A stretch of 45,644 bases of DNA from Christensenellales bacterium (GCA_051887955.1 JBJFAO010000156.1:1-45644), one strand, 5' to 3'. Numbered from the stretch's first letter, positions 3,002 through 30,300 are shown. Numbers and translations: made by a program. The notes: generated by a model not told the origin, from the letters alone.

Positions 3002-3037
3002 CGGTTTTATAAAATTCCCGTAGGGCAAGGCGCGGAC

Positions 3038-4738: not shown

Positions 4739-4958
4739 AATCCACCCTCACCGCAAGCGACGAGAGATTTTCCTTTCTCACGGCGTAGCGTACGTTGCGC
4801 GCCGATATTATAAGGGGGTCGCCCGACGGGCTTACGGATTTAATATATATCCTGCAGCCCTCCGTTATGCCGAGATTGTTCAGTCTTGTGAAAAAATCCG
4901 AGGGGCGGTTTTTAAGTACCGTGAGCTCCGCGCCGACGGGAAACGTATTTTTTTTCAT
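4554..4958 (-). CDS. feoA: FeoA-family protein with an unusual C-terminal read-through into feoB
   Basis: MKKNTFPVGAELTVLKNRPSDFFTRLNNLGITEGCRIYIKSVSPSGDPLIISARNVRYAVRKENLSSLAVRV matches a FeoA SH3-like domain of ~72 aa. The frame has no stop near the feoB ATG and continues 61 more codons to 4554. I prefer the ATG at 4958 over the TTG at 4982. Confidence 0.6.
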   Translation of the reverse strand: MKKNTFPVGAELTVLKNRPSDFFTRLNNLGITEGCRIYIKSVSPSGDPLIISARNVRYAVRKENLSSLAVRVDYENCSCREPKLRKNDAIQQNNGKQPPRRKPSGSNGGNDGRKIRKGLSLRPARHIFSRFFDK

Positions 4959-5028
4959 TTTACATATATATGTCCGCGACAAAAATCGGTGACTTTCCCC
5001 CTCGTTCAGAGGACTATCGGGGGCACGC

Positions 5029-5039
5029 GATAATGATTC
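5029..5039. promoter_or_regulatory. Fur-box-like half site in the feoA/ttcA divergent intergenic region
   Basis: GATAATGATTC matches the first 9-10 nt of the classical GATAATGATAATCATTATC Fur box. The second half is poor. It lies 47-71 nt upstream of the feoA start candidates. Confidence 0.25.
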
Positions 5040-5100
5040 GGAACCGACTTCGGGTTAAATTTTATTGCAAAATAATCGTTTTGGGAGTATCATTACGATT

Positions 5101-5965: not shown

Positions 5966-5991
5966 AATCCGCGTATTTTTGCGGATTTTTT
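5966..5991 (+). terminator. Intrinsic terminator after ttcA
   Basis: AATCCGC (5966-5972), an 8-nt loop, GCGGATT (5981-5987), then a T-run to 5991. Confidence 0.6.
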
Positions 5992-6108: not shown

Positions 6109-6137
6109 TTGACACGCTTTGATTTATGGGTTATAAT
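6109..6137 (+). promoter_or_regulatory. Perfect-consensus promoter for the giant gene
   Basis: TTGACA (6109-6114), a 17-nt spacer, TATAAT (6132-6137). An A/T-rich tract (6078-6100) lies upstream. The predicted leader is ~58 nt, with GGAG at 6189-6192, 9 nt before the ATG. Confidence 0.6.
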
Positions 6138-6201: not shown

Positions 6202-6312
6202 ATGACACCAAAAAACAAAAAAACGACGCACGGCATTTTCGGAGGCTCACGCCTTCGTTGCTTGCTGATGCTTCTGATGATTATCGCGCTGGTATTCAGC
6301 ATAGCGGCGTGT
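6202..6312 (+). other. Lipoprotein (SPase II) signal peptide with lipobox
   Basis: The N-terminus is MTPKNKKTTHGIFGGSRLR (basic n-region), CLLMLLMIIALVFS (h-region) and the lipobox I-A-A-C, with Cys37 at 6310-6312. A Gly-rich linker, SERTEGGENGGGG, follows. Confidence 0.7.
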
Positions 6313-9300
6313 TCGGAAAGAACCGAAGGCGGCGAAAACGGCGGCGGCGGAATTATTGACGACAATAAGGACGTTCAGCAGGTCGTCAACGTCACGAACA
6401 AAGAAGCTACCGAATACATAAAGACCGCCGTCAGAAACCTCGGCGCAACCTACGCCAACGACGAAAAGTGGCTCAACGTCGATTTCGCAATCGCTATCTC
6501 CTTCAATTCTTACGCAAAGGTCGACGACAAGTACACCTCCGAAACGGTTTCCAGCGCACAATTCGAAATAACGGTAAAAGCGGCTCTCAATCTCGAAGAC
6601 AACGCGCAAAGCGCGTTGGTTATAGAGTTGCGCGACATAAGACGCGACGCGACCGCTTTGGGATTCTACTATTACGATTCCACCACCTATCTGAACGTAC
6701 TCGGCAAAAAGTATTATTCCGAACAGCTTAATATGAACCAGATAGGCGTCGCTCTCGTCAACGTTCTTAAAGAAAAGGAAGTCGACATAGTGCCTATGGT
6801 CGGCAATCTGCTCGGCGGTTATATGGAGGGGACGGGAACGATACAGGGACTTTTGCCTCTCGTCTGGAAGATACTGTTCGCTTCGCAGTCGAACGTCGTT
6901 TACAGCGCGGAAAAAGTCGGCGATATGCCCAAATATCAATACATAAATCAGTATATCAACGCCGATATGATTTTCGAGATGATAGAAAAGGGCAAGATAG
7001 ACCTCGCCGGTATATTCACCCTCGATCTTACGTGGGAGGGCATAGGCAAGCTTCTCAATATGGAGTTGCCCGATATGGATCCGTTGCTTCGGGCGATACT
7101 CGGATTCGGACTTTACGACATCACGCACAAGGATTGGCCGTCGATGACGGTGGAGCTGAAAGCCATTACCGAGCTTACCGATTTGAAGCAGGGCGACGGC
7201 ACGATGACCAAAGGGTATAAGTTTACGGGATTTGCTTTGGACGTGCAGAGCGAAACCAAAGAATACGACCTCAATCTGAAAATCAATCCGTTCAAGCTCA
7301 ATACCAGCGCGAGCGACGAAGTAAAAATGAACCTCGCCGGCTACAATTTCGGCGCGGGCAAGAACAGCACCTACGAAAAGGGAAGCTTTACCAATCTCGA
7401 GCTTAATTTCAATCTCGGAGTACAGAACAAAGAGGACGAAGAGCTGACTATTTCGGGTTTGATAGGCAATTCGTTCAATCTCGGCGCGCTCGGCGAGATA
7501 CCTTTGCGGTTTGCCGGCGATTCCGACTATAATTTCGACGTCAAGCTCGCTCTGAGCCTCGATTTGTTCAACAACGCCAACAACAAGGCTCAGGTTACGC
7601 TGAAATACGGCGGACGGGAAGTCGTGTCGCTGTATCTGGTGCCCGACCTCAGGATGGAGGAGGGCAGCTCCGTGGTGTTCAATACCCTGTACATCGACGC
7701 CAGCAATCTGACCAGCGGCGGCAGGGCGTTTATTCCGCAGCTGCGCATGCCTTCGCTCAACGTGACTCAGCTGCTTGCCGGCACGCCTGAAGTGCCCGGA
7801 TTTTTGGGCGGACTAATGAAATATTTCGACCCGTATTATGCGGGTACTACGAGCGGCACGCGACCGAACAACGCCGACGAGGCGGGGGGCGGACTCGACG
7901 TGCTTACCTTGCTTACTCTTTTGGTGGAAACCGACGAACAGGGCAATCTGAAGCACTTTACCTTCCCCGACGCGACCTCCAAAAAATTCGATATCCATTT
8001 TGACAACGCCGCGATAAACACTCTTGTCGGAATGTTTATGCCCGGAATAAATCTCGGGATACAAAACCTGTCTCTCGGTCTCGATTTCGCAAGGCCGTTC
8101 GATTCCATAAGGCTCGACGTGGACGTGACGGATTCTCTTAAACTCAGCGCGGCGATAGGCGGCGACGCGCCCGACGGAACGTATACGACGGGAATAAGCT
8201 ATTTCAAACGTCCCAAATTCGATATGGAGGCGGTAGGCTGCGACGAGAACGGCGACGTTCCGCTCGACGGTAAAGAGAATGCGGAAAGCCTGCGCGGAGA
8301 ATATAAATCCATGGCGGGCGCGCTGGAATACGGCGCGAGCATAACCGGCAGCGTTAAAATAGGCAGCGGCGCAGATACGGAAATCGACCTTTCCGCTCTC
8401 GTGGGCGCGTTCGTCAAGAACGTAATGCTCGCTCTCGGAATAGAGACGTCGTCCGAGCTTAACATAGGTTATGAAATAAAAGCCGGCATCAATCTTCTCA
8501 GATTTTCGGAGATGGGACTTATAGTCGACCTCTATATTCTCGATTCCGACGGCAATAAGCCGTACGGCTATCCGTTCCTTACCCTTTACTATTCGGGCAA
8601 CGACGATACTCTTTTCATCAATACGAAGGTGAGCGAAGAGTACGATATGATGACTCAGCTAAGGGAGACGTTGCCGTTGACCAACGTAATCGACGGTAAA
8701 ATCCCCAAAATAGCCGTGCCCAATCTCGGCGTGGCGAAATTGTTGGAGGGAATGGGGCTCGATCTTTCGGGATTGGGCGCAATTATCGGAGCAAACGCGG
8801 ATTTGCGTCTGTCCCTGCCCGAAGACAGCGATAAGGTGGAGGTAGAAGAGAACGCGGACAGCCTCCTGTATATGCTGAGCAACACGATTTCTCTCAATGC
8901 CGACGGCGAAGGCGGCGGGCTCGACGTTCTCGGGCTTATCGGCAGCGCAATCGAAAGCGTGAACGTTGAAGACGGCAGATTGGGCGTAGTGCTTAACGCC
9001 GAGCTTATCGGGGCGTTGGTAGCCATGCTTTCGGTGGACATTACCGGAGAGCTCCCGAAAATAAACGGCAGTCTCAGCCTGCACCTCGGCACGCAGATAG
9101 CGCGCGACGCAGAGGGCAACAAGCTCTACGAATACATCACCTACAAGGAAGACGGAACGAAGGATATAAAGATATTCTCGTACTCCTACGGCGACGAAGG
9201 CAAGCTCGTTATTAAGGACGAAAACGGCAACGTTACCGATTGGGAAAGGGAAATCGATATGGAAAAGATCGTGCCCCACTATAAGGACAGCAATTATATC

Positions 9301-12300
9301 GAGGCGCACGTAGGTATAATAGACGACAAGATGGGCAACAAAGAGGCGTTTTATCTCGGTTTGAAGCTTATCGAAACCGTCAATCTGAAAAAAGGCTCGG
9401 ATCTCGATTTTATAGGCGGTCACAGCTCCGCCACGTACGTGACTCTCGACCAGTGGGTTAAGGAGCTCGTAGTTTCGGTAAACGTCGAGCTCGAGGTTAA
9501 TCTCGAGGCAGGCTCGCCCGAGCTTATTCCCGAAAAGCTCAACGAGACGATAGGAAAGATGCTTACCGAGCTTATGGGCTCGGCGGAGGGAAGCGAAGAA
9601 TTCCTCGACGTACTGATAAAGAGTCTCGCTTTGAAAATTCAAAACGGATATTTCTACGAAACGGGACTCCATCTCGGACTTGCCGTGAAAGGAAATATCA
9701 ACGTAAACAACATTTTCGACAGTAATCTCGGAGTGGTTATTTTCGATAAATCGGCGCCCGATACCGGCGGATACACGGCGAGCGACGGTCGCGCCTATAC
9801 TATTATAGCGGGCGTTTTCGTGGACGAGAACAAGGGATACGTCGACCTCAGTTATCTCGGAATAAATCCTGTGGCAGTCAGCGACCTCGAGGGTACGTAC
9901 GTAGGTATGATCGCTACTTTGTGGAACGTCAACTACAATAAGACGTTCGACAACGCGATAGCCGCCGAGGACGGATATCTGAGCAAACGTAACTTTATGG
10001 ATTACGTAATGAAGGAAACCGTTCTCAACTATTTCTTCGACAATTTCTACGTGAACAACGGATACGCTTCGAGGTATCCGACGAGCGCGTATAAATATCT
10101 TCTCAACGACGACGGATATATCTATCTTTACTATGTCAACGCATTCGGAAACAACTTCGAATACACCGATAAATCCAACGATATTTTCCTCAAAAACACG
10201 TCGAGAAGCTACGTGATAGAAAGTAACGGCAACATAGTTGTCAGAAATACGGCTACCGGAGATTTTTATACCACTCTCGTTCCGTTTTTGAGAGAGGACG
10301 GTTCTCCGTTGCGCATAAGCGTATCCGAAGAAGAAGAGATTATGCGGCAGGCGCAATGGGAAAAGGACGAGCAGATGGGCGCGGAGCCTACCCACTACGT
10401 CGATTTGGGAGACCTTCTCGCGAAAAAGGCGTACGACTCCTATAACGATTACGTATCCGATTACGTCGGAAGATGGGATACCGTCTACAACAAAGAAGGA
10501 ATAGACGGCAATCTCAAGAGCTTTATGGACGACGAGTACGAGAAGACGATAGCGGAAATAAAGAGCTTTTTACGCGCCGTAATCGTCGCGAAAGAGCTCG
10601 TTACGATAGAAAGAGAGCAGGGTATCGCCGTCATCGAGTATATGAAGACTTCCGAGGATATGACTTCCGACGGAGCGGGCACTTACGTAGAAATTTACGG
10701 CACGAAAACCAACGCGCAGATAAGAGCGACCGGCGAATATCTGAAGCTGTTGGAGGAGTACGTGGAAAAAGCCGTAGAAGAAACGGTGGAAAAGCAGTAT
10801 GCTTCAAGGGGCGTCACCGCGGAGGAACTGAAGTCGGTGACCTGTTACCGCATAAGACACAACGAAAGCTTCAAGGAAGAGCTTGAAAAAATACGCAACG
10901 AGACGCAGCCCGAAAATACCGACGTGATTGTGAAAAACGTCGGCGAGATGGAGGAATTCGTATCGAAGCTCGTACCCGCGCTTTCCGCCGATTATCGCAC
11001 TCCCGAGTTATCCAACGCGGCTATAGACAATCCTACGAGGATTGCTTTGCAGATTCTGTACAATTCCGGCAAGGTTTCGGTAGAGCTTTCCGCCGTCACC
11101 GTATCGGCGGTTCTTACCATGCTCGGATTTGAAAGAGTCAACGATTTAATAACGATAGATTCTATAAATATCGGTTTGGATTTCAGCGACGGAATAGAAT
11201 TCGGACTCTCGGTAGGCTTGGAGAGCACCTATTCGATAGGTCTCGGACTTTCCAAGCTGCGCGCGAGCGTCGATCCGGACAAGAGAGACAATTATAAGGT
11301 GACGATAAACACCGATAAGTATCCGCCCGAAAGCGAAATGCAGGGCGTTCCCGACGCGGTGCACGTTACTGCGTCCGGTTCTTTGTATATCCGCAACGAT
11401 ACCGGTAAATCCGGTCTGCGTCCGAGCAACGATTACAACATAACGGACGTTATTAACACCGTATTCAGCAATTCCGAGTTCAAGAAGAGCGAGCTCGACG
11501 CCGTATATGCGGAGATAGAAAAGGAAAACGCCGGCAATTCCACCATGACGGTCGCGGCGAAGAAGACGGCGGCGTGGAAGAGAGTGTCTTCGTCGGAGCT
11601 TTCGCAGAAGCAGAAGGAAGAGATGCAAACCCGTTACGCTTCCGCCGTAAAGGATATAAAAATCAACAAGAACGACGTAGCGGAGTGGTACGAATGGACG
11701 GAGGGCGACGACAACCATTACGCTTTGGCGTGGGATTATCTGTGCAAAAACTCCATTCTCGTAGACTTGAACGACGTCGGAGCGATCATTATGGCGCAAT
11801 TCCTCGGCGAAATGGACGACAGTCTGGAATTCGTCGTGGACGCATGGCTCGATTTCGAGAGCATATACAGAAGTATCCTCAAAATAGAGCTTATCCGTCA
11901 TAATTATTCCGAAACGGAAAATACGATAAACAGCGAATCGGTGCTTACCGTATATTACGACGGCAGCAATCTCGCGCCTACGGAAACGCAATTTTTCGGA
12001 GACGTGTACGTATCCACCAACATCTTCAACATAGGAGACGTCGTTTTGCGCGACGTTACCGCGGTAATTAAAGGAGTGACGGAAATATTCGACAGTACGT
12101 TTACTTCCGCAATGGGGGACGCTATCGACAAATTCCTCGGGCTGGACAGCCCGTCTCCGGCGGATATCGTGAGAGGTTCGGCTCAAAACGCCGCGGCGAG
12201 CAACGCCGACGAGCCCGCGCTGGCTACGTATCTGAACATTATGTTCAACGACGGCAATCTCGGTATCGCGGTAACGAAGGCGACGCTCATAAGCGTAATA

Positions 12301-15300
12301 AGAATCTTCGGCGTAGATCTTACCGAAGCTCTTTCCGCCCTCGATTTCGGTATGGATCTTACCGTAGGATTCAAAAATAACCTCAATCTTACCGCCAATA
12401 TCTATCTCGATTCGGAAGGCAACGTGACGGAAAAGAACGATCACGCCACCGAAATAGGTCTTACGATAGGCGGCTTGAACGCAAGCTTTACAAACGATAT
12501 TATTACCGACGCCGACAGGGAAAAGGACTACAAAGAGGTGGAAAAATTCACCACCGTCGGCTTCCAGTGGGGAGGAAAGTCGGCATTCGCTTTGTCGAAC
12601 GTAAACCGCAATTTCAACTTCGATTACGCGGTCAGGATGTTCACCGAATATTGGTTGGACGGAAGAGATTGGGACGTAGGCTTGCAGCTCGACGTCGCCG
12701 ACACGCAGGAATTCAAGCAGGCGACTTATTTCTCGGTAAACGCCAACGTCAATCTTACCACACTCAAGGAGCTCAAGAATATAGAGCTGTTCTTGAATTT
12801 TACTTCGGACGGCAAGCAGAAGCTTTACGATTATCTTGAGGAAAGAAGGAATTTCCTTACCGATTTCCTTGCCGCCGTGGGCGAAAACAACGCGGAGAAT
12901 AAGGCAAAAGCTTGGGATTTGTTGCTGGACAAACTCTCGACAGCCCTTCCCGACGACGACAATCTCGATAGGTACGGCAAAGTATATACGCCGGAAACGG
13001 AAATTCTGGACGACAACAAGTGCTACGGCATAATGAATGAAATTCAGAGAGAAATGATAAACAAATACGCCAACGAAACGGAAAGGAAGGTAGCCTGCTG
13101 GAACAAGTTGTACGGTCTCAGCGGAGATTATTATCTCGGCGATGCGATTTCCCTGTACGTCACCCTCGACGCGGAGGGCATAGCCGACGTATATATCAAT
13201 CTCGGTTTTCTCGGAGTGGAGAGAATCAAGCTCAGCAACGTAAGTCAGATTGTTATCGCTCTGGCAAAGGGCTTCGGGCTCGATTTGGGAGCAATCCTCG
13301 GCAGGGGAAGCAGTAATTCGGCGTCGAATTCCGCTCCCTCCGACGAGCAAGCCGCCTATGCCGCCGTCGCAAGTCAGATAGCGAGAGAAATACTCCTACA
13401 GATAAATACAAAAGAAGCGAGCGATTTGTTAATGCTCAAAGTAACCGGCGGAGCCATCTACGCTCTCGTAGCCGCTCTCGGAGTCGATATAGAAGAATAT
13501 TTCGATAAGTACACTCCCAATCTTTACGTGAGCGCGTTCGGTGACGATTTGGCGGAGATAAACCTCGAGCTTGAAAATCTGTTCGATCTGTCCATATCCG
13601 TCGCTTATCCTAAATTCAGTCTTAACAGCGGTCTGGAGCTTTCGATAAACGAGGACGCGTATACGATAATAGACAAGGAATGGACCACGGACTTAAAGCT
13701 TTTCTTCGAAGGAGCGTTGAAGCTGGGCGCAAACGGAGAGGCAGAGGCTTCGAGTCCCGAGGACATAACCTCGATAAACTTCGGAGATTTGTTGAGGGGA
13801 CTGCTCGGCAACGATACTTTTGCCGTGGACGTTATTCTGAAAGCTCTTCAGACCGTCAGCGCCGATTTGACTTTCCGGTTGGAGGCGAAAGCCAATCTGG
13901 TTCAGCTCTATATGCTGATATCGTTGTTAAGCGGCGACGAAGGAACGCTTACCGACGAGCAGAAAGAAGCGAAGAAGGCTCTCTACGACGACGACGGAAA
14001 GCTGAATATTCTGAAAGTGCTCAGCGCGTCGGGAGTCGAGCTCTATCTGGAAATAATAAACAGACGAGAAAAGGACGGATATATTACCGAAGATCTCGTA
14101 ATGGGCGTATATCTTGTAAAAGAGTCGCCCGACGGAATCAACGAGTTCTTATCCCTTTACCTCGACCTCGCGGCATTCCACGTGGGACGCGTCAAGGTGA
14201 CCGATTTCGAATCCACCGCGAACGGACTTATGAACAAATTGGGCGATTTGTTCGGCGGGGATAAAGAAACCGCCGGCAACGCCGCGGACGGAGAGGGGAA
14301 CGAAGCCGCGACCGTTTCGAGCGGATCCGCTTTGTTCGATACGGCGAGATATCTTCTCTATATGAAGTCGACGGCGGAAGAAAACATAGGAAAAATCGAT
14401 CCGAACAGCTTCTTTATGGACTATTCCGAAGTGTTCGGAAAGGGAGGAAGTCTCCTTCCCGATAACGCCGACGGAGGAAGGGAAACGACGTTGGCGGACT
14501 TTATACACGCCGTGGTCGGCAACACGTACGGACTTACCATATCCGCCGCGGCAAACGTTCTTATCAAGCTCCTTAACGAAGCGTTCAACGACGAAAGAAG
14601 CCGTTATTCGCGTAGCTTTTTGAATTATATCGAAAGCGTTTATAAAGGGGACAAAGAAGAGAACATCGCCGAAAAACAGACCGTTCTTAACCGTATGGAC
14701 GATATTCTTGCAGCGAACGAACAGAACAAACAGAACGCATGGGAGGCTCTGCTCGACAGCAATTCGCTCGGTCAGTATTATACCGAAAGAGCTATGGAAA
14801 TTTACGGCAGTCTGCAGACGGGAACGGACAGCGACGTCAGAGCGGAGGCGTGGGACAGACTGTACGCCGAAATTAACGGAGATATAGACGGCATAAGAGA
14901 AGCTCTCGACGATTCCGACGCGCTGGATAAATTCAGCGAGGAAACGGCGGAGGAGTATTCCTATTATTATGCTGCCGGAATGGCGTTGGAGAGTTACGTC
15001 TACGACATGCACGTTAAACTCAACGCATTGAAAACCGCTTACGAACAGGCGGAAGAAACGGTAAACGGAATGAGCGGAATAGCTCCCGACCTCAAAGACC
15101 GCGAGATTGAGAGTTACGCTTTCGAGTATTTTACCGGAAGATTTGCCTGGAGCAACGCCGATAAGGAAAAATATCAGGCGATATATAACGAAAAAGAAAC
15201 CGAAAACGGCGGCAGTAAGCTTATGGCGGGTTCGGAGGCCTGGAAGAAGATACGTACCGATATAAACAACACCTACGCCACGCTCCTTGCGGCGTTCAGG

Positions 15301-18300
15301 TACGTAAACTCCTTTGCGTACACGACCTACGGCTTCAAGACCACGGGAGACGCCACGCTTAACGGCTCGATTGACGATTACGTAAGAGAAAACAACATTT
15401 TCATAATTTCGGAGGGCAGATACGAAAAGTACGCCCTAAACGTTTCGCACACCTGGAAAGTGGTGGCTTGGGAATATCTTGTCGACAACAAGTCCATAAG
15501 CCCGGAAACCGCCGAAAATTATTATAATACCGCATTCAAACAGTACGTTATCAGCGCGAGAGGACTTCTTACCGCAATCGAATACAGGTATGCAGCCTGG
15601 ACGTACATAAACGCCGACGCTCAGAGAGTAATAGGGTGCGTTTATCCCGAAATGGCGTTCTCGTTGAGAAAGATTGTCGACGAAAACGGGGATTCGGTAT
15701 GGACGAGAATGGACGTTACCGAGGAATATCTGCTTATACTCGAGGATTATTACGACAAATCCTATTCGGATATACCGCAGCTTATAATAGACGCGGCGAG
15801 CAAGAAAGGCGAAATTACCTTAGGTATACTGTTCGAGAATTCCATACTTAACGTAGGCGCGGAAATCGCAAACCTGTATCTGGAAATAAAATTCGTCGAA
15901 GCGGGAGTAAAAATCGCGGAAAGCGATTTGTCGCGCACCAGACTGGAATTCGTTTACGACGATTTCGACAATATAACGGGACAGGAAGAAAGGACCGAAA
16001 TCGTCAACGTGGAAAATCTTGAAAAATCGGTCGAGAAGGAAGGCGGATTTGCCGAAATAGACGAAAACTTCGGGTACGTTTACGCGAAACTCGATATAGA
16101 ATTCGGTCTTAACCTCGACGACGACGCGCGTTACGACTTTACCGAATTGATAAACAGCCTTATTGCGAGCATAGGGCTTGACCTGACGTTCAACGGACAG
16201 ACTTTGCAGATAGCTCCGGTATTGAGCATACTGAACAGTATCGGCAACTACTTCAGGATTTCGTTGGAGGCGAAAATCAATCTTTTCCGTCTTATGAACA
16301 AGGACCTTAGCGATACCGATATATCTCTTACGGTATATTCTCTCGACGGCAGCGGAAATATCAAAGAGACTGTATTGCAGTTGGTGTTCGGCACGGCGGC
16401 GGAGGAGGACGGAACTCTGTACAATTTCGTCTATATAGACGCGCACAGATTCAATATACAACGGCTGTACGTCAAGAACGCCCTCGACCAGATAAAGAAG
16501 CTGTTGGGCAATTCCGATTATCCCGTTTATCACGATATCCGCAACGGAGGTTCGATATCCAAAGCGGTGATGGCGGCGATGATAGCGGACGTGCTTTCCG
16601 CCGGAGAGGGAGACGAAACGGTCTTCGACAGCTTTGCAAAATACGCCGACGCCAACGGAGGAAGCAATCCTTCCGTGGATATCGAGCTTGCCAGATACGG
16701 AATGAGCGTTCAGATAGCCGCCAACGCGGTTTACGCTTTGCTCTCCTTCCTCGGTATGGGCAACGTAAAGAGTATGATAAGTAAGGTCGGAGAGCCGAGT
16801 CTTGCCATAGATATTTTCAGCGTCGCCACGTATAACGACGAAGATATCGTAAAGCCCGACGGCAGCTACGACGACGGCGACAGAAACCTCATAGCGGTAC
16901 AGCTGAATTTCGACAGTATAAACGAAAACGGCGTCGGAACGGGCAGAGGCATAGGGCTTATGCTCGCCATCCGCAATATGGAGCTCAGCTTCAATCAGAA
17001 GCAGAATATAGAATTCAACGAAGAGGAGATACTCGAAAGGGACGAAAACGGCGATCCGATAGATTTTGCGGAAATCGACGGAATGCTCCCGAAAATTGCC
17101 ATAAAAACCTCTATCGTGCTGGAAATCGACGCCGGCGTTACTACGGGAACGAACCTCTATCAGGAGCCGGTAAATACGATAATGAAAAATTATCTCGGCG
17201 GACTCGTTATGGATATAGCCTTGTATATAGCCAACAAGCAGAAAATAACCGTAGCCGTCGACATAGAAGCCAGCCTCGACCTCGGCAACGGCGAGGATAA
17301 CGAATATCTTAAGCACCTTATTTCCGGCTCCTCCATAAGAATAGCTCTCCGCATATTCAGAGTGGGAGACAAGGTTGCGTCCGACAGCACTAAGGAATGG
17401 GCGGTAATTACCTATTTCGGCGGTAATCTCTATATAGACCTGTCCAATCTCAACAGCGACAAACTTTATCTTGCCGACGTAGGTAATCTCGTGTTCGGCG
17501 ACGGAAGCGACAAGCAGACGCAGGCGTTGTTCTCCGCGTACGAAGCGTTGTGCGCCGCCATAGGCAAGGTCAATATAGGAATAGACGCCGAAATAAATAC
17601 GTCCGGTATTTATCTCATAGTAAAAAAGGCGGCGATAGCAAGCCTTCTCAAGGTGTTCGGCTTCGGCGGCTTCGATATGTTCCCCGACGCGGCAATTCAG
17701 GTTTACGTGAAAGGAATGAAGGTTGAGGAAGGCGTAAACACCTTCGACATCGGTTTGCAGCTTGCGCTCGGCGAAAATCTCGTTACCGGCAGTACCGTTC
17801 TCAATCCCGTTCTCGGATTGGGTATTTCGGTAAAGGGCTTGTACGTAGGGTTCAACGGTCTCGACATACAGGTCAGCGACAGCGCGGAATACATTCAGCT
17901 CGACAGACTCGACACCATTTATTTCTCGACTGAGTTCCTTGTAAAAGTAACCGACGAAAAGGGTATCTATAAGCTGGGCGGATTGCTGCAGGTTCTTAAA
18001 AATAACGGCTATTTCGACCTCGGCGCGACTCTCGGCATAGATACCGCAATCGACCCGATAATAGAATTTTTGGAATCGCTCGATTCGGCTTTGTATGCGA
18101 AGGTCGACGTAACGCTCAACATAAACAGCATACTCGAGGATTTGCAGGCAAGGCTGTCCATTTACAATAAAGCTCCGGCGGATCGCGCCGAAGACGAACG
18201 TCCGATACTTAGTCTTGCGTATATACGCGGAGACGTGTATATAGACGCGGAGGGCTTATCCGGCAGCGAAAACTTCTATCTCGGCAAGGTAAAGATAAGC

Positions 18301-21300
18301 GGAATTATGGATCTTATCAAGGCGTTGACCGGCGGAAACGCAACGGAAGAAGCCAAAAACACCTACGAGATGATTAAGACGTACGAGAAGCTTTTCGCAA
18401 AAGAAAACGCCTCGTTCGCAGACGTAACGGAGAAGGCGAGCGGAACCATCAACATAATAGGCGACGTAGTGGAAGGACTTACCGTAGAGCTCGTAAACGG
18501 GGCGATATTCGGACTTGTAAAACAGCTTTTGGGCGTGGACATGGCGGACCTTATCACCAACGTTCAGACTATGGTCGAAAGCGTTATGGATCCGTATCTC
18601 GGTATCAATATCGATCCGAGTATAACCTTATTGATAACCATAGGCTTGCCCAGCACGGCGTACAACGTGACCGAGAGCGTAACGGCGGTTCCGGAGAGTA
18701 TGGCAAACGCCATAAACAAGTGGTACGGAGACGAAAAAGACTCTCTTATCTATCCCGACGAAGTCTGGAACGTGCTTTTCGAGGGAAGCGAGTTATACAA
18801 GCTTTATAATATTTCTTCCGATAAGAAGGCGGAAAAAGTACGCGAATGGATAGCGGGTAACAAACCCGAGATAAGCTCCGTTTACGCGGATATGCAGGTG
18901 CGTTTCCCGAAGATGAGCGACAGTCAGATTTACGTCCTTACCTACGACTATATGATAGGCGAAATCTACGGCAACTCCGTTCTCACCGCGGCGTACGGAT
19001 ATAATTTCTCCGCCGATAAAGAAGAGACCTCCGGCGATAAGCTTAACGTAAAGCTGGAGAGCTTCTATTCCGATTATCTGAAAGCTTACGCGTGGAATAG
19101 CTATTATAATCTTGCGTCGGAAGCTCTGAAGGGAAGAATGGACGACATTCTCTCCACGCAGTCGGACAAGAAATCGGCGTACGACGTGTTCGTTTCGGAG
19201 ATAAGCGACGAAGCCGACGCGTTGAGAAACGTCTACGAAAAGAGCGTATATCGCGAAAAAATAGCGGCGCTTCGTCTGGAAGCTGTTTCTCTCGGCGTAA
19301 ACGACAGCTATTGTTACACTGCGCTTATAAAGGGAATAATGCGCGCCAACTACGCTATGGAAGACGGTTGGATAAGTTATATTTCCGACCAGATTAAATA
19401 CACGTCGGGAGAGGATAAGATTACCGTTTATCTCGCTAAGTACGACGAATTGTATACGGTACAGCGCGCGTACGCGTGGGACGCTTATTACGCTCAGGCG
19501 GACGCTTACGACAAGGCTTTGATGAACGGCGCGTTCAGCTACGCCGAAGGAAGGTATAAAAACGCTACCGAGCAGGAGCTTAAGGCGTACGCGTACGACA
19601 AGTACAAAAAAGACCTACAGGAATCCTCCACCCTCTATCAGGAAGCTTTGGCGGCGGACGATTCGGCGATATTGAAATCGATATTGGTAAACGAAATGCG
19701 CCGTTACAGATATTACGACGGCGATACGCTTGCGGGATTGAGCGCGGACGAAATAAGCGACCTTATCGTAATACTGGACGCACTAAACGCCGCCGTGGCT
19801 AAATACAGCGTTGCAAATACGGTAATACTCAACGCTTATCAGGTGGCGGAGCTCGTCTACGACCTCGTATTCGATCCGGCGACAGCCCTTACCGACGTGG
19901 AAAAGGATTTCGACGGCGTCGCCGTCGACGTAATGAGGAGGATAAGACTTTTCGCCGTGGACGAATTGAGAAACAGCGGCGTCGAAAGAATTACTTCCCA
20001 GCTTATAGCCACCGACGGAGAAACCGACTATGAGAAAATAGAGCTTCTCGACTCTCTCATGAAACGCTATGCCGATAAATTCGTCGTTTTGCGCGGCACG
20101 GGCAAGGAGCTCGACGCCATAACGGCTGCCGCAGACGGCGTTTCTTACAGAACGCAGGCGTGGAACAATCTCATCAGCCTCGAATACAAGAGCCTTCTCC
20201 CCGAAAACGCAGTTATTCTTTCCGCGGAGACGGGCGCGGTCAACAGCGGATACGCATATTCCGGAATAAACAACGGCAAGGAAATCAATCCTTCCCGTTA
20301 CTTTGCCGACAGATACGGTTTAACGGTGGAAAACGACCTTATGAAGGTTTATCTTATATATTCGGAATTAAAGACGCGCGCCGCGGATAAGAGCCTGTTC
20401 GTCACGGCGGAGGAATACGTTTACGATTCCGACAAAATCGGCAACGTCACGGCGATATGTCGCGATTCCGCTTACGGCAAAGACGGATATCTCGTGCAAT
20501 TTTACAGAATGGCGAGAGCCTTCTCCCGTTATCTGTTCCTGTTCGACGCGGCGGGCAAGACCATGACCGCGGAGGAAATAAGCGTAGTAGCGGAAATAGC
20601 TTCGGATAGTTACGGCGTAATTTCTTACGAGACCTATTTCGACTGCTTCGCGGATTATAAGGGCGAAAGCTCGGAGCATTACGGCAGGATAATCACCGCT
20701 ATAAATATCGTCAGGGATATGTACGTTACCTTGAGAGAAGAATGCGCCAAACAGGATAAGACGACGCGCAGGAAAATCGACGTCGCGATAAAGAGCATAA
20801 TGCCGAAACGCGGAATTACCGTCGAAAAGGTAAGCTCGGCGATAGCTTACGGAGATATCGCCGACGTTAAAGATATGCCTTTGTATCCGACGTATCTTGC
20901 TATAAGTCAGTTGCTTATAAATTACGCCGGCAGCAACGCCGCTCTTAACGAGGCGGTAGAGTACGCCGACTATTATATGAACAATCACGCCGATACCGGA
21001 CTTAACGAAAGGATAGCCCTTATTTACGGCAGATATATAAAGATCTGCGATTCGGTACATAAAAAGGAAATAGAGAACGTTATCAACGCATTCAATTCCG
21101 GCGATTATTCCGCTCTTACCGCAGAATGCTGGGCAGGCTTCGGTTTCGAGGGAGATATATACGATTCGGGAAGGAACGTCATAGAGATAAAGGAAAAAGC
21201 GGCCGCCATAAATACGCTGTTTGCCGGATATAACAACGAAGAGTACTCCAAGCGCTTTGCGTGGGAGGCTTGGTACAGACTTTCGTCCACCGCGAGCAGA

Positions 21301-24300
21301 ATAGAGGAAATGGACGCTATGCTTCGCGCGAAGGTGTTCGAGAGCTTGTATTCCGATATTAAGGACATGCTGACCGAGATAATAATCGATTCCGCCGACT
21401 CCGCAATAAAAGAAGGAATGAGCGTAATCGGCGTCAACGCAAAGAAATACGAAAAGCTGAACATAATAGCGTATAACGAGTATTTCTCCGAATTCAAGGC
21501 GGCGACCACAGCCTTATACGGCACGATAAACGGTTATTACGGGGAGATAGACGACGTAGTCGCAGCCGCGGAAAGCGATCTTACCGCGCGTTTCGAGGAC
21601 AACGCTTCCGACTTACAGAAGGCGGAGCTTATGAGAAAGATTTATTCCGAAGTAGTCGCCGATTCTTCCGGCTACGACGCGAAGATAGCTATGGAATGGA
21701 AAGCTACATACGAAACGGCTATAAACGGAATAATAGACGAGGACGCGACGGCGTACGGCAATCTTATGTACGAAAAGCTTACCGTTGCCGACCTCAACGC
21801 GTACGTCGCCGACATGAGAGCCGTGTTCGAGAATATCTCGTCGAGAGTGGTGGACGAATACGGCGCGCGGACCGAAAAGGCAATGCTCGGCGCGGCAAGG
21901 GATAAGACGGCGCAGCTAAGGGACGTCTTCGACGGACATCTCGCCGCTATGAGAAGCGCGGAGTACGATTACTATTACTATACGCAGCTCGACGAATATC
22001 TTAAAAAAGATCCTGCCAATACGAAAGAAAGCTTCGATAACGAGATAGGAGAAGGGACCGTTGTTATCGACTACGAGGAATACCCCGTAGCTTCCCCCGA
22101 TCCGTCGGAAATAACGGCTGCCGCGAATATGCAGGAGCTGAAATCCGTATACGAACGTTTCGCCGCTTGCGACAAGACGGCAAAGCTTCAGACGTACGAG
22201 TATGCCCACGATACCCATAGCATAAACAATGCGGTTGGGATGGACGATACGACGTATAACGTAAACAAGAAACAAGCCAACGCGTACGACTACCGCGCGG
22301 ACAACGCGGAGCTTTACGCATACGCCGATTATCTTGCCGTGACGAATAAGGGGAACGTGTACGACTATAATTACAGAAGGATAACCGCTCTCAGAGGAAT
22401 AGAACAGAACGTCGCGATATCCTCTTCGGTAAAGGACAATATAGCGACGGAGGGCGGCAAGTATCGCGAAACGGCTCTCGGCTACGAAAACCTCATTCAC
22501 GATAACAACAACAAGGAGATAATAGACGCGGTTTACGCTTTCAGTGAGGACGACCGGTATTCCGACGACGCTTATCTTACCTCTTGCAGAGACGAGTTCG
22601 TAACCAAATATAAGGAATATGCGTTGAAAGCGTTCGATTTGCTGTTCTCTTCGGGAAGCATCACGGCTTTGTTCGGCGGAGATATGCCGAGAGCGACGTA
22701 TACCGCCTTTATCGATTGCTATGACGATATGCGCAGTAAAATGAACTCCCTCGACCACGGTTCCGACACGTACTCTTTATACGACCGGACGAGGACGGAG
22801 GTATTGCTGTCCAAGACCGTCAAGAACAAAGCTCTCCTTATGGAAAAAATGTATCTTTCCTACGAGGACGGCACTCTTTCGACGGGAATTATTTCCGACT
22901 TCGACGACTTGTTCGCGAATTATATGAAGGCTATGGAAACGGCGGTTTACGCCGACGCTTTCGCATACTTTACGCAACATATTTATTCCGAACGCAACGG
23001 AGGAATTTACAGCGCGTTCAGAACGCAGATTGCCTCTATGTACGACGGCTATATAAGCTCGGCGACGGCACTCCTCAAAAAGGTATATCTTGCCGTTACC
23101 GGAGAAGAGCTTAACGCAGGCGCCTTTACCGAAGCGGTGACCGCCGTCAACGCGCATCCCGTTCCCGGAGAGTATGCAAAATTCGTGGACTTTGCGACGA
23201 ATATCTCTAATTACATAAAACAATTTACCGACAATTTCGGCGTGTTCGACAACGAAGCCAAGCTTAAAGTCCTTGCGTCGGTAATTTCCGATGGCAACGC
23301 GCTCTACGGCGACGCGGACTGCGTAAACGGAATGAAGAATATAAGAACGGCGTTCGTTACCTTCGTAAGGGAAAACTACTTTACCTTCGGAGCGACCGAA
23401 AGCATCCTCGGCGTAGGAGCTAAGTACTACGACGACCTGTATTCGTTGACGAACGAATTGAGCGCGCTCGTAGCCGCCGCAAACGACGTCGCTAAAATAA
23501 ACGAGCTGAAGGGCTATATAAGCGCTCTCGGTTATTCCGTAAGCGGAAGCGAAGATTATTTCCGTACGCTTACGATAGTCTTCAACGCCGCCAACGGCAA
23601 TATAGCCGGAATAAACAAGGTCTACAGAGCTATGTTCGGAAATTATGCGGCCAATGTTTCTTCCGCGGTTTATCTCATAATAACGGAATCTACGTTTAAG
23701 AATAAGCTTGCCGCAGACTACGAAGAAATAGTCGCCTCTATAAAAGCCAACGATCCGAATCTGAAGACGTTCGTAGAGGGACAGGGGATTAGCGATTCCT
23801 CCTCCGCGCAGGACAAAGCTCTCGCTCTCGTCGCGTTGTCGGACTATATCGAAAGCTACGTCGAAAACGGCAATACTCTGAGCGAAGCCACCGAGGAAAA
23901 ATACGCCGACGCAAGAATAGCGTTGTTGAGTCTTACCTCTCCGGAAGAACACCTCACCCTTTCGGTATTGGAAAGCTACTACGGTTCTTACGCGACGGCG
24001 GCGATAGCGAAGGCGTTGAAGCTGAAATCCACCCTCGAAGCCGGCACCGACGACGCGCTCGAATATCTGACGTTTACCGATATGAGAGATATTTTCGACG
24101 AATATCTCGACTTCTGCAAACAAGAATCCGCTTCCGACCTCGTCAACGTGCTCGAGGACAGCAGGATTCTCGTAAAATCCTTCGATCAGGTGTATAAAAA
24201 CGCGATGTCGGCGTTGGAATCTTTAGCAGACTTTTCTATTTCGATAGGTCTCGAAGGGGCTCAGACAAGCGTACTGTTCGATATAAAGAGATATCAGGAG

Positions 24301-27300
24301 GACGAATCGGGCGCAAGCGTGTCTATGATAAAGGACGTTCTTACCGACGAAGAAAAAGCGGAATATACCGAATATTCCGAGCTTACTCTCCGCGTCAACC
24401 TCAACGCTTCCCTTGCGATGAACCTCGATAAAGGTATACTCGATATAAATCCCTTGTTGGGACTTGTAAACCTTCCCATAAAGATAAGCGAGCTCGATAT
24501 AGAATTTTTGGCGGAGCACACCCTTTACGCAGAAATAAGCGGTTATCTCGGAATAAACTTCGAGGCGCTGTTGAGCGGAGATAAAGACAGAATAAACAGC
24601 TCCATAGTAGGCGAAGTCGCGCTTACTTATTACCTTATCGATCACGATACCGACGGCGAGAATACGAGATTCGAGCAGGTTATTCTTCACATTTGGCTTT
24701 TCGGACCGAGTATTTACGGACAGGTAGAGCTGTTCGACAGTCACGTAAGCGTAGAAATACCCTTTACTCTCGGAGAAATGCTCGTCGGTATGTTCAATCC
24801 CGAAACCTCCGCGGAAGAAGCCGCCGCATTGTCCTCGATAAATTCGGCGATAATGAGCGCCGTTCACGGCGTGACGAAAGAGGAGGCGGCGGAGATGCAG
24901 ACGCCGTTCGAGCAGCTTATGACGGTTGCGAACGCTTCCGAGAGCAGTCTTGCCGACGTGCTGGAGGTTCTGCTTCGCATAAACACTCAGGAGACGGCGA
25001 TTATTCTTACCGTAGATATTCTTGCCGAGCTCGTCAAGATAATATTCAAGGAAGAGACGCTCAGCAGCGGTCTTGAAGACTTGGTCAATCTCGCTCTCAC
25101 CGAAGGCGATATAGCCATCGAATACGGAAACGATTTCGGTATTCGTCTTGGCTTGCACAAAAACAGCGAGGAGGGCAGCGACAAGATAGGTTACGACGCG
25201 GAGCTTGCGTTATTGCGCGACACCCTTATAAGTCTTGACAGAAAACAGTACGATAAGCTCTACAATTCGATAGACACCCTCAAAAAAGACGGATTTTTCG
25301 ACGACTTCTTCAAGCTCGGCACCGACATAGACTCCGACGCCACGATGTCGGAAATCCTCACGTCGGTAATCGGCGCGCGTACGACCGTAAGTCTTAGTAT
25401 TTACCTCGAAAGCGACGTGTTGAAGACGGTGCTCGACTGGAGTAAGCTGTTCAGCGTACAGGAAGTGGACACCTACTTCCAGCTCCGTATTATGCAGAAC
25501 GCAAGAGGCAGACTCCGTTTGGACATAGCTCTCGATATCGACCTCGAAAGAGAAACCTTCGACTTCTATATAAGAGGATACAATACCGATAACGAAAACT
25601 TCTTCAACATTTACTACGTGAGCGGAATGCTCAACAACGATTCCGGCGCGCCCGGCGTACTTGCTCCGAAGTTTTACGTGGACAGCGGAGAGAGAGGGCA
25701 CGATAAGCTCATGCTCACTCCCGAGATGGGTTACAATATGTTCAACCTCAATCTGGTAAACATATTCTTCTATCTTATAAATAGCGAAAGCCGTTACGAC
25801 ATTCATGCGCAGAACGTCTCCGGTTACGTAGCCGACAACGCGTCGTTTGACGCTCTTGTCGACGAAATGGATTGGGGCGACGTTCTGGACGGTCTTACCT
25901 TCGGCAAAGGAACGATAGGCATACAGCTCGCGACGACCATAATCAACGCTTTCCTGCAAGCCTTGTTCGGATTCGAGTTTGCGGAATTGGGCAACATTAC
26001 GTTGGAGCTCGACAACGTGAACAACACGCTGTTCCTCAATATCCCCATAGACGCGCCCGTGTACGACGAGGGCGGCAACGTGGTCAATTCGTCGAAGCTG
26101 AATTTCGGCTTCGGATTGTCCGACGTGGATATTAAGCTCGGCGCGCGCGAGGATTTCTTCGGAGAAAGCGTATCGTCCAAGTTCGGCTCCGGATACGAGC
26201 CTCTCGACAATTACGTGTGGGTAACCGAAGTCAACAGCTCGTTGCACGTAAACGACGAATTCAATACCGTGCTCGACCTGACGGGACTTACCTCGAGTAT
26301 CATCAACGGACTCGGAGTCAATATAAAGAGCGGAGATATTCTGGACAAAGAGATACTGTTCGCCCTCCGCACCTACGTGGACTTTGCGGATTTGAGCAAT
26401 CTCAGATTCGAGCTCGAGGTTTCGCACGGCAACGGGGCGGGAGCAAAGGTACAGAGGATACTCGGCATAAAATACGTCGGACAAGCGAACGACGGAACCG
26501 TTTTCGTCGATTTGTCCGGTCTCGGATTGCCGAAGATTTCCATAAGCAATATAAACATAGGTTCGCTCGTCAAGGAAATTCTGGCTAAACTCGAAAAGAG
26601 TCTGAGTAACGACGAAGAACAAATCACGCCTTCCTCCGCGGACGGAACCGTCGGAAACGATATTACCGACGCGGAAAGACGGTCGCAGATGTATCGGGAT
26701 ATCGCGGATATGGAATTCGGGCAGAATATGCTCATGTACGTATATTCCAGCGAAGAAGCAAGCCTTGCCATAACCGGCGCGTTGCTCCTTACCCTTATCG
26801 GCAACCTGAACGATACCTTAGGCGGCGTATTGCCCGACGCGATACTGAACATACCCACGTTCAGCTATCTCAAAATAGGTAGAGACGACGCGGATAAGGT
26901 CAACGGAATACAGATTGTTCTGGACGAAAACAAGCAGTTCTCGATACGCTTTAATTTCGACAAGAGTTATTCGCATCTGTCGGTTCGCAGCAAAGTGAGC
27001 GACATTACCGATATGACGGTGGTAAGCGACGCGGACAAAGACGAGTATACCTCTATAGACAGTCTGAAAAATCTGCACATCGGTCTTAACCTCGAGCTTA
27101 CCTTACAGACGATCAATCCCGATACAGGGAAGAAGAGCGACGTTATCGAAGGCTTCGAGGATATGCTGGAGAAGATGCTCGGCTTGCAGAGCGACACTAT
27201 TATGTTCGATTTGCAGGATACCATAATGACGTTCAGCATAATGCTCGACGTCGGCGTGGATCTTACCGACTTTGCAAAATCCGTTATAAAACTCGAAATT

Positions 27301-30300
27301 TATTACAACGACGAGGTTATGATAGGCGTTTACTACATAGACGGAGTGGTATACGTAGACCTCGGTACGCTCGGACTTTTCCGCGCGAGCATAAACGGCA
27401 TAGACCTTGCCGCGATGATAACGGGCATGCTTTCCGGCACCGATTTCGAAAAGATGATTACCGTCGACGGTATAGACGTGGCGGGACTTGTAGGAGGACT
27501 CCTTGACGCGGATAAATTAAGCGAAGGCGGAAGCGGCAGCACCGTAAAATCGGGCACGTTCGTCAAGAAGGAGACCAAGGGTTCGTCTATAGCGGAACTC
27601 GACGCCGCCGTAAAGAAGCTGTCCGACGGGACTGCAAACGGCGGTTATACAAAGGATCAGATACGCCTTGTCGCCGACGCTATGACCGCAGGTAAGATAA
27701 AGTCTCTCGACAATCTGACAGCCGATCAATATAAATCGTTGTACGATTACATAACGGGCGGAAAGAGTATATCCGAATATATAGCGAGCGACGATTTTAC
27801 CGGATTCGTTTTATTCGGCGAAAGAGGCAGAGTGATAAGCGCGATAACCGCGATAATCGACGCCGCGCAAACAGCCCTCAAAGGAATGAGCGCCGAACAG
27901 CTTGCCATTACAATAGAAGAATGCAAATTGAGCGGAAAGACCTACAACAAGATGGGCATAAGCCAGCTCGAGCTTGCGTTGACGATAGTCAGGAAATACG
28001 AGCTTGCGAGCATAGACAAGATGAGCTCGTCTCTGAAAGCGAAAGCTATTGCCGAAACGGTGGACGAAAAGGGTTCGGCGATTAATTCCGCCCTGTACAC
28101 CGGCGACGCTACGGCGAAAGAAGCCGTCGAGAAGTTTATTAAGAGCTTTGTGGCGGCGTTTGCCGGATGCAACGTACATATTCTCAACGCAATTATCGGA
28201 GGTATGGAGTCGGCGGGACTCGAATATCTCCAGATGAAGGGTTCGCACTACGACGTCGCGGGCAATTCCGACGCCGAAGTTACCGCAAGGAAGAAAGCCT
28301 TCATTGAAGGCATGGTAAAGAAATACGCCGTCGATTACGTCAACGTGACGTACGGAATCACCGATTCCGAGATAGACCTCGTTATTGCAAGGTCGCTCGC
28401 ACAGTTCGGTATTTACGAGATAGCGGATTCTACCGTCAGCGGCACCGATGGCAACAACGCAAGCGGCACGCCGTTAATAAATCTCATTCTTACCGAAGAA
28501 GAGATAAAGATTAATCCCAACGCGGCGTCTTTGGGACTTCTCGTGGGAATGATTATGCCGGGTAAAGGATTGACGATACCCGACTTCAAGCGCATGGAGC
28601 TGGTGCTCAATACCTACGACGGACTCAGCAACATAAACTTCAATTTCGTTCTCGACGGATACGGCAACAAATTCCATCTCGCCATTCCTACGGGCGGATT
28701 GAAATTCGTGTTCAACGAAGGAGTGGGAGAGCTTGCCGGCGGCAAGGACAAGAGCTTTACCGAGATATTGGAATTGCCGGACGTTTCTTCTTACGGCGGA
28801 CTTACCGGCGTAAGCATGAATGCAAGCGGTCTCAATATGAATACCACCGCTCTCGTCAACAGCTTGTTGGACGGAATATTCATCGACGACCTTACCATTT
28901 ATCTCGAGCACAGAACGGATTATTGGAACAGAAAAGACTTGTTCTCGAAATATCCCAAGGTCGACGCTACCGGTCCGTATACCTACGCCGACTGGGACGA
29001 CGGCTATCTGGGTAACGACGCCCAAGCGCTCAGCACCGTGGCGAAGATATTGAATATAGTCAACAAGATTTATAATCTTATCAACTATAAAAACATAATA
29101 GACCTGATAACGGGAACTTCCGGACTCGTAGACTCGGCGACCGCTTCAAAGAACAGACCTAAGCTTATCCGCAACCAGTACGCGAGAGGAAAAGTCGTCG
29201 CTTACAAGACGGTGACCAACGTAATCAACGCGGATATCTCCACGCCTTCATATAAGCAGGGCAATATAAGCGCGCATATCGATCATCACCAGATACTCCT
29301 TTCTATAGGAATGTCTCTGACGATAAAGATTTATATCACCCTCGATCTCAGTACCTTCCTGAACGGTAAGAACGAAGGAATGGAGAGCAAAGGTCTCAAT
29401 ATTTCCAACCTTGCCGGTATGGTATTGTTCCCCGACAGCATGTTCGCCTCCACCAACGAGAAGAGCGGCTCCGGGCGCTTCTACGGCAGGGTAACCGACA
29501 CCGAAGGCAATCCGATAGAGGGAGCGACGGTAACCGTATATAACGGCACGGGCGATTATCAGGTAAGAACGACGGACGCGGAAGGATATTATTACTTCCT
29601 CAATCTTCCCGTTACCGAACGTATTTACAGAGAGTATGACCTTTACAGGCTCAATAAATGGTTCGACGATCTGAATAAGGACGAAAATCCCAACAACAAT
29701 ATCGTATTCGGAGAAAAATATATAAACTTCGACGGTAAAGATTACGAATTCGTCGACGGAGTCTATTACAACGTCGGTGACAGAAGCACGATAAGCATAC
29801 ACAAGAGCGGCTGCAGCTCTTATTACGAAAGAGAAATTTTCGTAACGCCGAAGGAAACCAATTCCGCCATAAGAAGAGACGCCGTGCTCGTGGACGTATC
29901 GTCGAGCGGAGAAGTACCCAAGTCCGTTACCTTTACCGGTAAGACGTATTACAGAGACGGAGAAGCTCTCAAGCCTTTCGGCGGAGCAAGCGTCGTTTAT
30001 AACGGCGGCACCGGACTTACGGTATCCTCCGTTCTTGCCGAAGAGGGCGTGGGTACGTACAGCATGACCGTGGACGTTTACGAATCCGTCCTCGATTATT
30101 ACGAAAACGTAGCTACTTCCTTGCTCGCGCACAACTTTACGGCAAACATATCCGGCTACGAGCTCGTCACCTTCAACGTAAACGAGGGCGGAAACACGAC
30201 CAACTATTCGGCAATCGCTCTCAATGCGTTCCTCAACGAAGCTATAAAGCGCGGTTCGAGCGGACTGACCGTCAATCTCGACCTCATATTCGATCGTACC

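Follow-up and report, generated by a model that had tools for sequence, protein, structure and literature searches.

Fourteen diverged copies of an undescribed ~290-residue module in a rare family of giant predicted surface lipoproteins from Christensenellales and other Clostridia

The window analysed here, a stretch of 45,644 nucleotides (nt) from a Christensenellales bacterium (GCA_051887955.1, JBJFAO010000156.1:1-45644), carries one giant gene, a single open reading frame (ORF) that encodes a protein of 11,595 amino acids (aa), hereafter the window protein (W; Table 1). The protein starts with a predicted lipoprotein signal peptide, continues with a long array that is interrupted by four inserts, and ends in a strand-leaning C-terminal region. 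A preliminary description of the same DNA had flagged a hidden periodicity at nt 6661-28569, which falls entirely within the ORF, and had described it as two degenerate motifs, A and B, that alternate in a fixed order. Here, we report that the array consists of 14 homologous units. Their repeat module is new and has not been described before, and the giant predicted surface lipoproteins that carry it form a rare family.

The internal homology is detectable in the protein itself, although its full extent emerged only from profile models. When 200-aa chunks were compared with the whole by self-BLASTP, 135 off-diagonal matches were obtained versus 42-56 in three local shuffles; the best pair (aa 6726-6829 and 7019-7108) reached E=8e-6, and several marginal pairs lay on the A and B motifs that had been proposed. 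A hidden Markov model (HMM) iterated from the window protein alone stalled at 3 copies, and orthologues were needed: an A-block profile with six orthologue fragments grew to ~175 positions and recruited 10 copies with 0 decoys, reversed sequences serving as decoys in this and the later profile iterations. Leaving out one orthogroup at a time, every copy was found again at E-values from 9e-5 to 2e-14, against values of at least 0.085 for the reversed controls. The full-period model was fixed at 297 positions, as a free-length first iteration had drifted by absorbing inserts, and it converged on 15 matches across aa 83-7503 with a best decoy of E=0.098. These 15 matches represent 14 tandem units because an insert splits unit 4. 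The C-terminal part of unit 14 is a weak HMM match; this region is conserved, W 7413-7680 aligning with aa 4078-4316 of the relative P0008 at 31% identity. Unit 6 shows a helix-leaning stretch of ~116 aa (aa 2196-2311) in place of the first beta segment. The units are real and internally homologous, with a pairwise identity among paralogues of 14-23%, so that the old, heavily diverged duplication of a ~300-aa unit that had been proposed is borne out under decoy control. No significant sub-repeat was found within the module when its N-terminal and C-terminal halves, or its motif A and motif B regions, were compared by hhalign (E=0.11).

Mapping the model positions back onto the protein largely upheld the earlier landmarks. 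All of the quoted motif strings occur at their given nucleotide positions in the frame of the ORF, and 14 A and 14 B motifs alternate strictly, the first A starting at nt 6655 and the last B ending at nt 28569. B follows A by 61-135 aa (60-130 aa had been claimed), adjacent A motifs are 269-409 aa apart (280-420 aa claimed), and the outsized gaps lie at the four places named (713, 758 and 2159 aa, plus 386 aa from A14 to B14). What did not hold is the idea of two separate alternating elements: A, a beta-hairpin at model positions ~76-100, and B, a strand followed by a hydrophobic helix at positions ~147-176, are both landmarks of one module of ~290 aa. In the window protein and its relatives alike, no other element of a unit is as hydrophobic as motif B, whose Kyte-Doolittle mean is 1.6-2.0 over 19 residues.

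The family to which this protein belongs is rare, both in representative proteins and in metagenomes. An exhaustive HMMER search with aa 1-1200 against 1.84 billion representative proteins returned 41 relatives at E<0.001, among them full-length giants of 7,125-7,826 aa. Among reference genomes, six relatives turned up in metagenome-assembled genomes of Christensenella and other Clostridia, 30-75% identical and all open across 23-24 kb, and a metagenome scan with orthologue alignment found 6 loci among 241 million records. A further homologue search gave no match for aa 6000-7100, and N-terminal queries gave 2 and 3 matches. The window protein is colinear end to end with its relatives at 22-36% identity (BLASTP). 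Applied to full-length relatives that were unseen in training, the 297-position model placed 13-14 units directly one after another within the first ~4,200 aa of each and hit 0 decoys, and the same tiling was found in the metagenome loci L010 and L011. The count of 13-14 units is shared by W, P0008, P0012, P0013, P0015, L006 and L010 despite an orthologue identity of 25-31%. Each unit is closer to its own orthologue than to its paralogues, and orthology is one-to-one across these relatives; the duplications therefore predate the divergence of the family. As read from the sequences, the ancestral architecture is a lipobox, 14 uninterrupted modules and ~3,000-3,600 aa of C-terminal domains.

The module has no recognisable counterpart in the databases that we searched, as the preliminary description had anticipated when it placed the architecture outside the named repeat families. 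Pfam and NCBIfam recognised nothing in the first ~7,700 aa of the window protein, and a unit profile built from 29 sequences of 7 proteins matched no Pfam family at E<=1; against PDB sequences its best match (E=0.28) was a chance match. The profile itself displays six to eight segments with strict hydrophobic/polar alternation and acidic polar faces, together with one amphipathic helix; the beta-amphipathic character of the module is shown. Because the homologue searches yielded so few sequences, the alignments for structure prediction were shallow. The AlphaFold2 model of unit 1 (aa 38-440; five orthologues and the window paralogues) has a mean predicted local distance difference test (pLDDT) score of 53; its confident parts (pLDDT 70-83) are meandering beta-strands of 15-21 residues, arranged as five or six strands, a poorly predicted helical segment of ~130 aa and then three strands. 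A model of units 1-3 repeats the same secondary-structure pattern in each unit at a mean pLDDT of 38.6 and therefore says nothing reliable on packing. The layout of the module is accordingly one of long alternating strands that include the motif A hairpin, a variable low-complexity or helical segment with motif B, and about three more strands. In mean-field direct coupling analysis (DCA) of 155 units (effective number of sequences 113), the highest scores joined positions at short range and did not exceed those of a column-shuffled null.

Two folds that the preliminary description had put forward can be addressed at this level. Beta-solenoids are built of short strands (3-6 residues) and coils with a sequence period of ~18-30 residues. 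The predicted strands, with 15-21 residues, are too long for a beta-solenoid or beta-helix fibre, which was therefore excluded; they also stand in meander order, and the period is ~290 aa. The other candidate, a groove of the AsmA/TamB/VPS13 type, found no profile or Foldseek support, the models compared being of low confidence, and it is weighed below among the rival readings.

Four large blocks, ~3,060 aa in total, interrupt the array in the window protein, at model positions ~118-138 and ~173-202. Their places agree with the gaps named earlier, while the helical character assigned to them is backed indirectly: in inserts 1, 3 and 4, beta-amphipathic 11-residue windows account for 1-4%, versus 11-15% in the unit regions (5% expected, hence a 2-3 fold enrichment in the units), and helix-leaning Chou-Fasman windows make up 29-37% of the inserts versus 18-23% of the units. 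The last ~100 aa of insert 2 may be a diverged C-terminal part of unit 7. Distant relatives carry 13-14 uninterrupted units with 0-19 residues at the insert sites; in P0012, W aa 4157-6000 corresponds to zero residues (2637->2628) and W 7118-7424 to ~19 residues. For this reason the inserts are lineage-specific, additions of the Christensenella-like lineage within or between module elements, and the tolerance of insertions that had been suggested is borne out. In L006, the most distant genome relative at 30% identity, six regular units, each ~330 aa long, occupy aa 2046-4073 of the open frame with a very even spacing of 325-334 aa, where the window protein has units 8-10 and the 1,951-aa insert. 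Separately, a motif of the form ~[KR]A.AW[DNE].[LY] recurs in the inserts at nt ~12900-13100, 14700-15500 and 19050-21300 (aa 2235-5030), for example as KAKAWDLLL, RAYAWDAYY and KRFAWEAWY, and the C-terminal region adds two copies in a helical patch (aa 9299-9345, nt ~34096-34236). Alanine precedes 12 of the 23 tryptophans of the inserts (2.5 expected; maximum 8 in 2000 shuffles). As a repeat family the motif was rejected, a seeded HMM having recovered only the seeds and their orthologues, and it was treated as a short motif.

Signal peptides of lipoproteins have a positively charged n-region and a hydrophobic h-region, and their lipobox [LVI][ASTVI][GAS]-C lies close to residues 15-40. The N-terminus of the window protein has these features of a signal peptidase II substrate, lipidation being predicted from the sequence, and the A/G-C-S/T lipobox is kept in all 16 of the family N-termini inspected. 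At the C-terminus (...DVTFNVYTIIRIN) an LPXTG motif and a hydrophobic tail are both absent, as they are in four relatives. Just after the array stands a CarboxypepD_reg domain, a prealbumin/immunoglobulin (Ig)-like fold and the sole significant Pfam or NCBIfam match in the whole protein; it lies at the matching relative place in L006 and L010, and traces of Big_4 occur in L010 and L011. The Pfam and NCBIfam scans of the window protein contained no enzymatic domain. The C-terminal region is presumed to be the distal, functional end. Within it, a glycine-rich hydrophobic stretch (…AIPGIGWLFTGIGTVAGFLGSLLSTVGQQLGALLGELATIFSSLLP…) at nt ~30967-31596 (aa 8256-8274 and ~8395-8465) resembles a glycine zipper or membrane-active helix, and comparable segments stand shortly after the array in P0008 (aa 4378-4407) and P0013 (aa 4498-4551); such a stretch could be a membrane-inserting or oligomerising element.

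The genes flanking the giant gene are ordinary chromosomal ones, namely Sir2, formate-tetrahydrofolate ligase (FTHFS), FeoB, a PP-loop ATPase, uracil-DNA glycosylase and an aminotransferase. The order Sir2 - FTHFS - FeoB - (FeoA) - PP-loop ATPase - giant gene is conserved, window positions 565-5931 matching 1650-6950 of L013, a metagenomic relative with a giant protein 47% identical to the window protein. The giant gene of the L013 contig is called as two overlapping pieces of 423 aa and 794 aa, a split that probably reflects a frameshift or an assembly error. Between the upstream PP-loop gene and the promoter-like site lies a terminator-like hairpin (nt 5966-5987), and the layout suggests that the giant gene of 35 kb may form an independent, possibly strong transcription unit. 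The giant gene contains many long antisense ORFs, the longest of 734 aa (8659-10395, 11146-13350, 29248-31281 and 35473-37407, all on the - strand); they are most likely shadow ORFs from its codon composition, and nothing points to genes. A 227-aa ORF at 43041-43724 (-), which has no Pfam match and overlaps the start of a DUF255/thioredoxin-GH-like gene on the opposite strand, may be spurious.

Table 1. Features of the giant gene and its surroundings in the window. Unit bounds and unit E-values are those of the 297-position full-period model; aa, residues of the window protein; model, model positions.
Feature	Position (nt)	Strand	Details
Promoter-like site TTGACA-17-TATAAT	6109..6137	+	12/12 consensus positions; 65 nt 5' of ATG; consensus match only
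Giant lipoprotein gene	6202..40989	+	one ORF; relatives likewise open across 21-24 kb loci, colinear
Predicted lipoprotein signal peptide ending in lipobox SIAAC (Cys37)	6202..6312	+	MTPKNKK...LLMLLMIIALVFSIAAC(37)S; tail LLMLLMIIALVFSIAAC37S
Unit 1	6448..7461	+	aa 83-420, model 2-291, E=2.7e-34
Unit 2	7504..8187	+	aa 435-662, model 27-211, E=9e-25
Unit 3	8374..9522	+	aa 725-1107, model 9-280, E=2.8e-31
Unit 4, N-terminal part with motif A	9604..9942	+	aa 1135-1247, model 14-118, E=4.4e-13
Insert 1, helix-leaning, separating motif A from motif B in unit 4	9943..10980	+	aa 1248-1593
Unit 4, C-terminal part with motif B	10981..11319	+	aa 1594-1706, model 126-245, E=9.5e-13
Unit 5	11719..12786	+	aa 1840-2195, model 1-282, E=1.5e-46
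Unit 6	13135..13812	+	aa 2312-2537, model 73-291
Unit 7	13813..14583	+	aa 2538-2794, model 19-173, E=1.3e-18
Insert 2, mostly helix-leaning	14584..16176	+	aa 2795-3325
Unit 8	16177..17163	+	aa 3326-3654, model 10-286, E=2.7e-61
Unit 9, most canonical and compact	17173..18030	+	aa 3658-3943, model 7-297, E=6e-71
Unit 10	18058..18615	+	aa 3953-4138, model 26-202, E=1.1e-35
Insert 3, helix-leaning, Ala/Tyr/Glu-rich, recurrent [KR]A.AW[DNE]	18616..24468	+	aa 4139-6089, 1,951 aa; absent from distant relatives
Unit 11	24469..25401	+	aa 6090-6400, model 9-252, E=3.5e-36
Unit 12	25474..26247	+	aa 6425-6682, model 24-273, E=7.2e-39
Unit 13	26248..27183	+	aa 6683-6994, model 4-290, E=2.5e-52
Unit 14, N-terminal part with motif A	27166..27606	+	aa 6989-7135, model 18-138, E=6.5e-18
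Insert 4, helix-leaning, separating motif A from motif B in unit 14	27607..28299	+	aa 7136-7366; ~19 residues in distant relatives
Unit 14, C-terminal part with motif B	28300..28710	+	aa 7367-7503, model 133-223, weak HMM match E=0.038
C-terminal region, about 3,850-3,900 aa, strand-leaning	29422..40986	+	one Ig-like match only; colinear with relatives
CarboxypepD_reg (prealbumin/Ig-like) domain just after the array	29482..29613	+	aa ~7761-7804, E=1.7e-9

Several known systems resemble this protein in part. With giant Gram-positive stalk-repeat proteins (S. aureus Ebh and SasG, the Rib 'periscope' proteins and Apilactobacillus Giant1-5) it shares very large size, a presumed extracellular place in Bacillota, an anchor at one end, a long repetitive middle, Ig-like or binding domains elsewhere in the chain and the lack of enzymatic domains. 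In those proteins, however, the repeats belong to recognisable domains (FIVAR-GA, G5-E, Rib, beta-solenoid, SRR), share high identity and vary in number, and the anchor is mostly LPXTG or a C-terminal transmembrane segment. The window protein instead has an undescribed module of ~290 aa with 14-23% identity, a conserved count of ~14 and an N-terminal lipobox; neither high repeat identity with variable copy number nor a sortase or C-terminal anchor was found. TamB, YhdP, VPS13 and ATG2 share with it N-terminal membrane anchoring, a fixed length, and extremely diverged repeats of long amphipathic strands that are separated by loops or helices and are hard to detect by sequence. The AsmA-like repeat unit comprises five meandering beta-strands and a crossing loop in ~100-150 aa and forms a continuous open hydrophobic groove, and such bridge proteins span two membranes or an organelle contact site. 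Compared with them, the unit here is about twice as long, with more strands and a large helical segment, some 3,900 aa of other domains follow, and a lipoprotein signal replaces the transmembrane anchor; the host clade is not known to have an outer membrane. The LolA/LolB/RseB and hot-dog folds may share with the module a curved antiparallel sheet, a hydrophobic concave face and a hydrophobic helix, as judged from the models, but they are single domains of 170-260 aa rather than 14 tandem units. From the literature, the Giant1-5 proteins have beta-solenoid heads (PMC12863079), and a survey of giant genes describes giants of gut Clostridia that consist of RCC1, Listeria-Bacteroides repeat, YG, dockerin and leucine-rich repeat elements (bioRxiv 10.1101/2023.11.21.568195). 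The survey's giants (10,000-30,000 aa, proposed to act in cell-surface interactions) are alike in size and host, but their repeats are absent from the window protein. The module is absent from both of these papers, and a literature search combining Christensenella with giant proteins found nothing.

On balance, and with confidence only a little above even, we favour an array that serves as an elongated extracellular scaffold of fixed length, lipid-tethered at its N-terminus and presenting its C-terminal region, with a role in adhesion, aggregation or the organisation of the envelope. The lipidated mature N-terminus would be tethered to the outer face of the cytoplasmic membrane, and the 14 head-to-tail modules, the product of ancient duplication, would fold into the scaffold, the motif B helices probably covering the hydrophobic faces of their sheets. 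In this way, the last ~3,900 aa with the prealbumin/Ig-like domain would be held away from the cell, with adhesion, aggregation or envelope organisation as the outcome. A defined length or geometry is indicated because the count of ~14 is conserved among strongly diverged modules. Several points weigh against such a scaffold. Known stalk adhesins have near-identical, copy-variable repeats, the opposite of the array here; adhesion draws weak support from a single Ig-like match; the inserts are helix-leaning by composition and periodicity only; the tertiary models are of low confidence (mean pLDDT 53 for one unit and 38.6 for three); and Foldseek searches of the PDB and viral models gave no match above a template modelling (TM) score of 0.32, the matches being to generic beta-meanders and curved sheets.

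The other readings were weighed against the same evidence. That chance or composition in a long beta-rich protein produced the periodicity, with no true internal homology behind it, might be argued from the paralogue identity of merely 14-23%, the single-sequence HMM that stalled at 3 copies and the missing DCA signal, yet the controls refute it and leave it practically no probability: zero reversed decoys passed in any iteration, the leave-one-out searches succeeded (E 9e-5 to 2e-14), the tiling of 13-14 units was found independently in relatives outside model building, and self-BLAST gave ~2.5 times more matches than the shuffles. Another reading, which we consider unlikely, treats the modules as 14 independent globular alpha+beta 'wrap' beads, LolA- or hot-dog-like, that would each bind their own hydrophobic ligand or partner. 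In every unit, long strands flank a separate hydrophobic helix (motif B), hot-dog thioesterases and LolA-like proteins head the Foldseek matches, the structural elements accommodate large insertions between them, and the strong divergence of units that are nonetheless orthologously conserved suggests unit-specific roles. However, these matches are not credible (TM 0.10-0.32, root-mean-square deviation 10-23 Å, low-confidence model), no LolA, hot-dog or related Pfam family was detected, and profiles of LolA, LolB, RseB and DUF4367 type gave no match, with Foldseek probabilities of 0.6-0.82 and TM-scores of 0.23-0.32 normalised to the target and 0.14-0.17 normalised to the query, short of the value above 0.5 that a confident superposition would show. 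Moreover, strand runs seem to cross the unit boundaries, the C-terminal strands of one unit standing directly before the N-terminal strands of the next, with 0-25 aa between abutting units.

The main rival reading, distinctly unlikely in our judgement, is that the 14 modules join into a continuous amphipathic beta-sheet groove or belt that would carry lipids or hydrophobic cargo outward from the membrane, in functional analogy with AsmA/TamB/YhdP, VPS13 or the amphipathic beta-belt of ApoB. The strands of 15-21 residues with strict hydrophobic/polar alternation and one hydrophobic face would suit such a groove, as would the conserved count of ~14 modules, which implies a fixed length, and the predicted membrane anchor at the N-terminus; the only Foldseek matches with a probability above 0.6 (0.6-0.8, from a low-confidence query model) are lipid-holding curved sheets, namely LolA-like proteins and the ApoB100 beta-barrel. 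Nevertheless, the TM-scores of these lipid binders are only 0.14-0.32 and no VPS13, ATG2 or TamB structure is among the best 50 Foldseek PDB matches of either low-confidence model. AsmA, AsmA_1/2, DUF490 (TamB), DUF748, Chorein_N and VPS13 gave no Pfam match at E<=0.1 over the whole protein and none in NCBIfam, and the 29 units likewise matched no AsmA, DUF490, Chorein or VPS13 family in Pfam. The module of ~290 aa, with 8-9 strands and a helical segment of 100-130 aa, is not the ~100-150-aa unit of five strands and a loop, and its very hydrophobic helix could itself bury the hydrophobic face of the sheet. The Clostridia relatives also are not known to possess a second membrane, which counts against a groove. 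A bolder variant, for which we see little likelihood, would make the array a bridge- or belt-like amphipathic beta-sheet machine of a new class, evolutionarily unrelated to AsmA and VPS13, whose continuous hydrophobic surface would extend tens of nanometres outward from the cytoplasmic membrane and hold or move lipids or other hydrophobic molecules. If true, cargo could pass, for example, to a partner cell (a syntrophic methanogen, say) or to an unusual envelope layer, and the count of 14 would set the span.

Christensenellaceae are among the most heritable and health-associated members of the human gut microbiota, and their cell surface has been little studied. The giant gene takes up ~35 kb of a small genome, and its core of ~4,200 aa is made of a module with no relative by sequence in Pfam, NCBIfam or the solved structures. 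Because the gene has its own consensus promoter and conserved synteny and occupies so much of a small genome, the giant lipoprotein is likely to be a major surface component. Solved structures of one to three modules would establish a new domain family and show whether the array is a simple spacer or a hydrophobic conduit.

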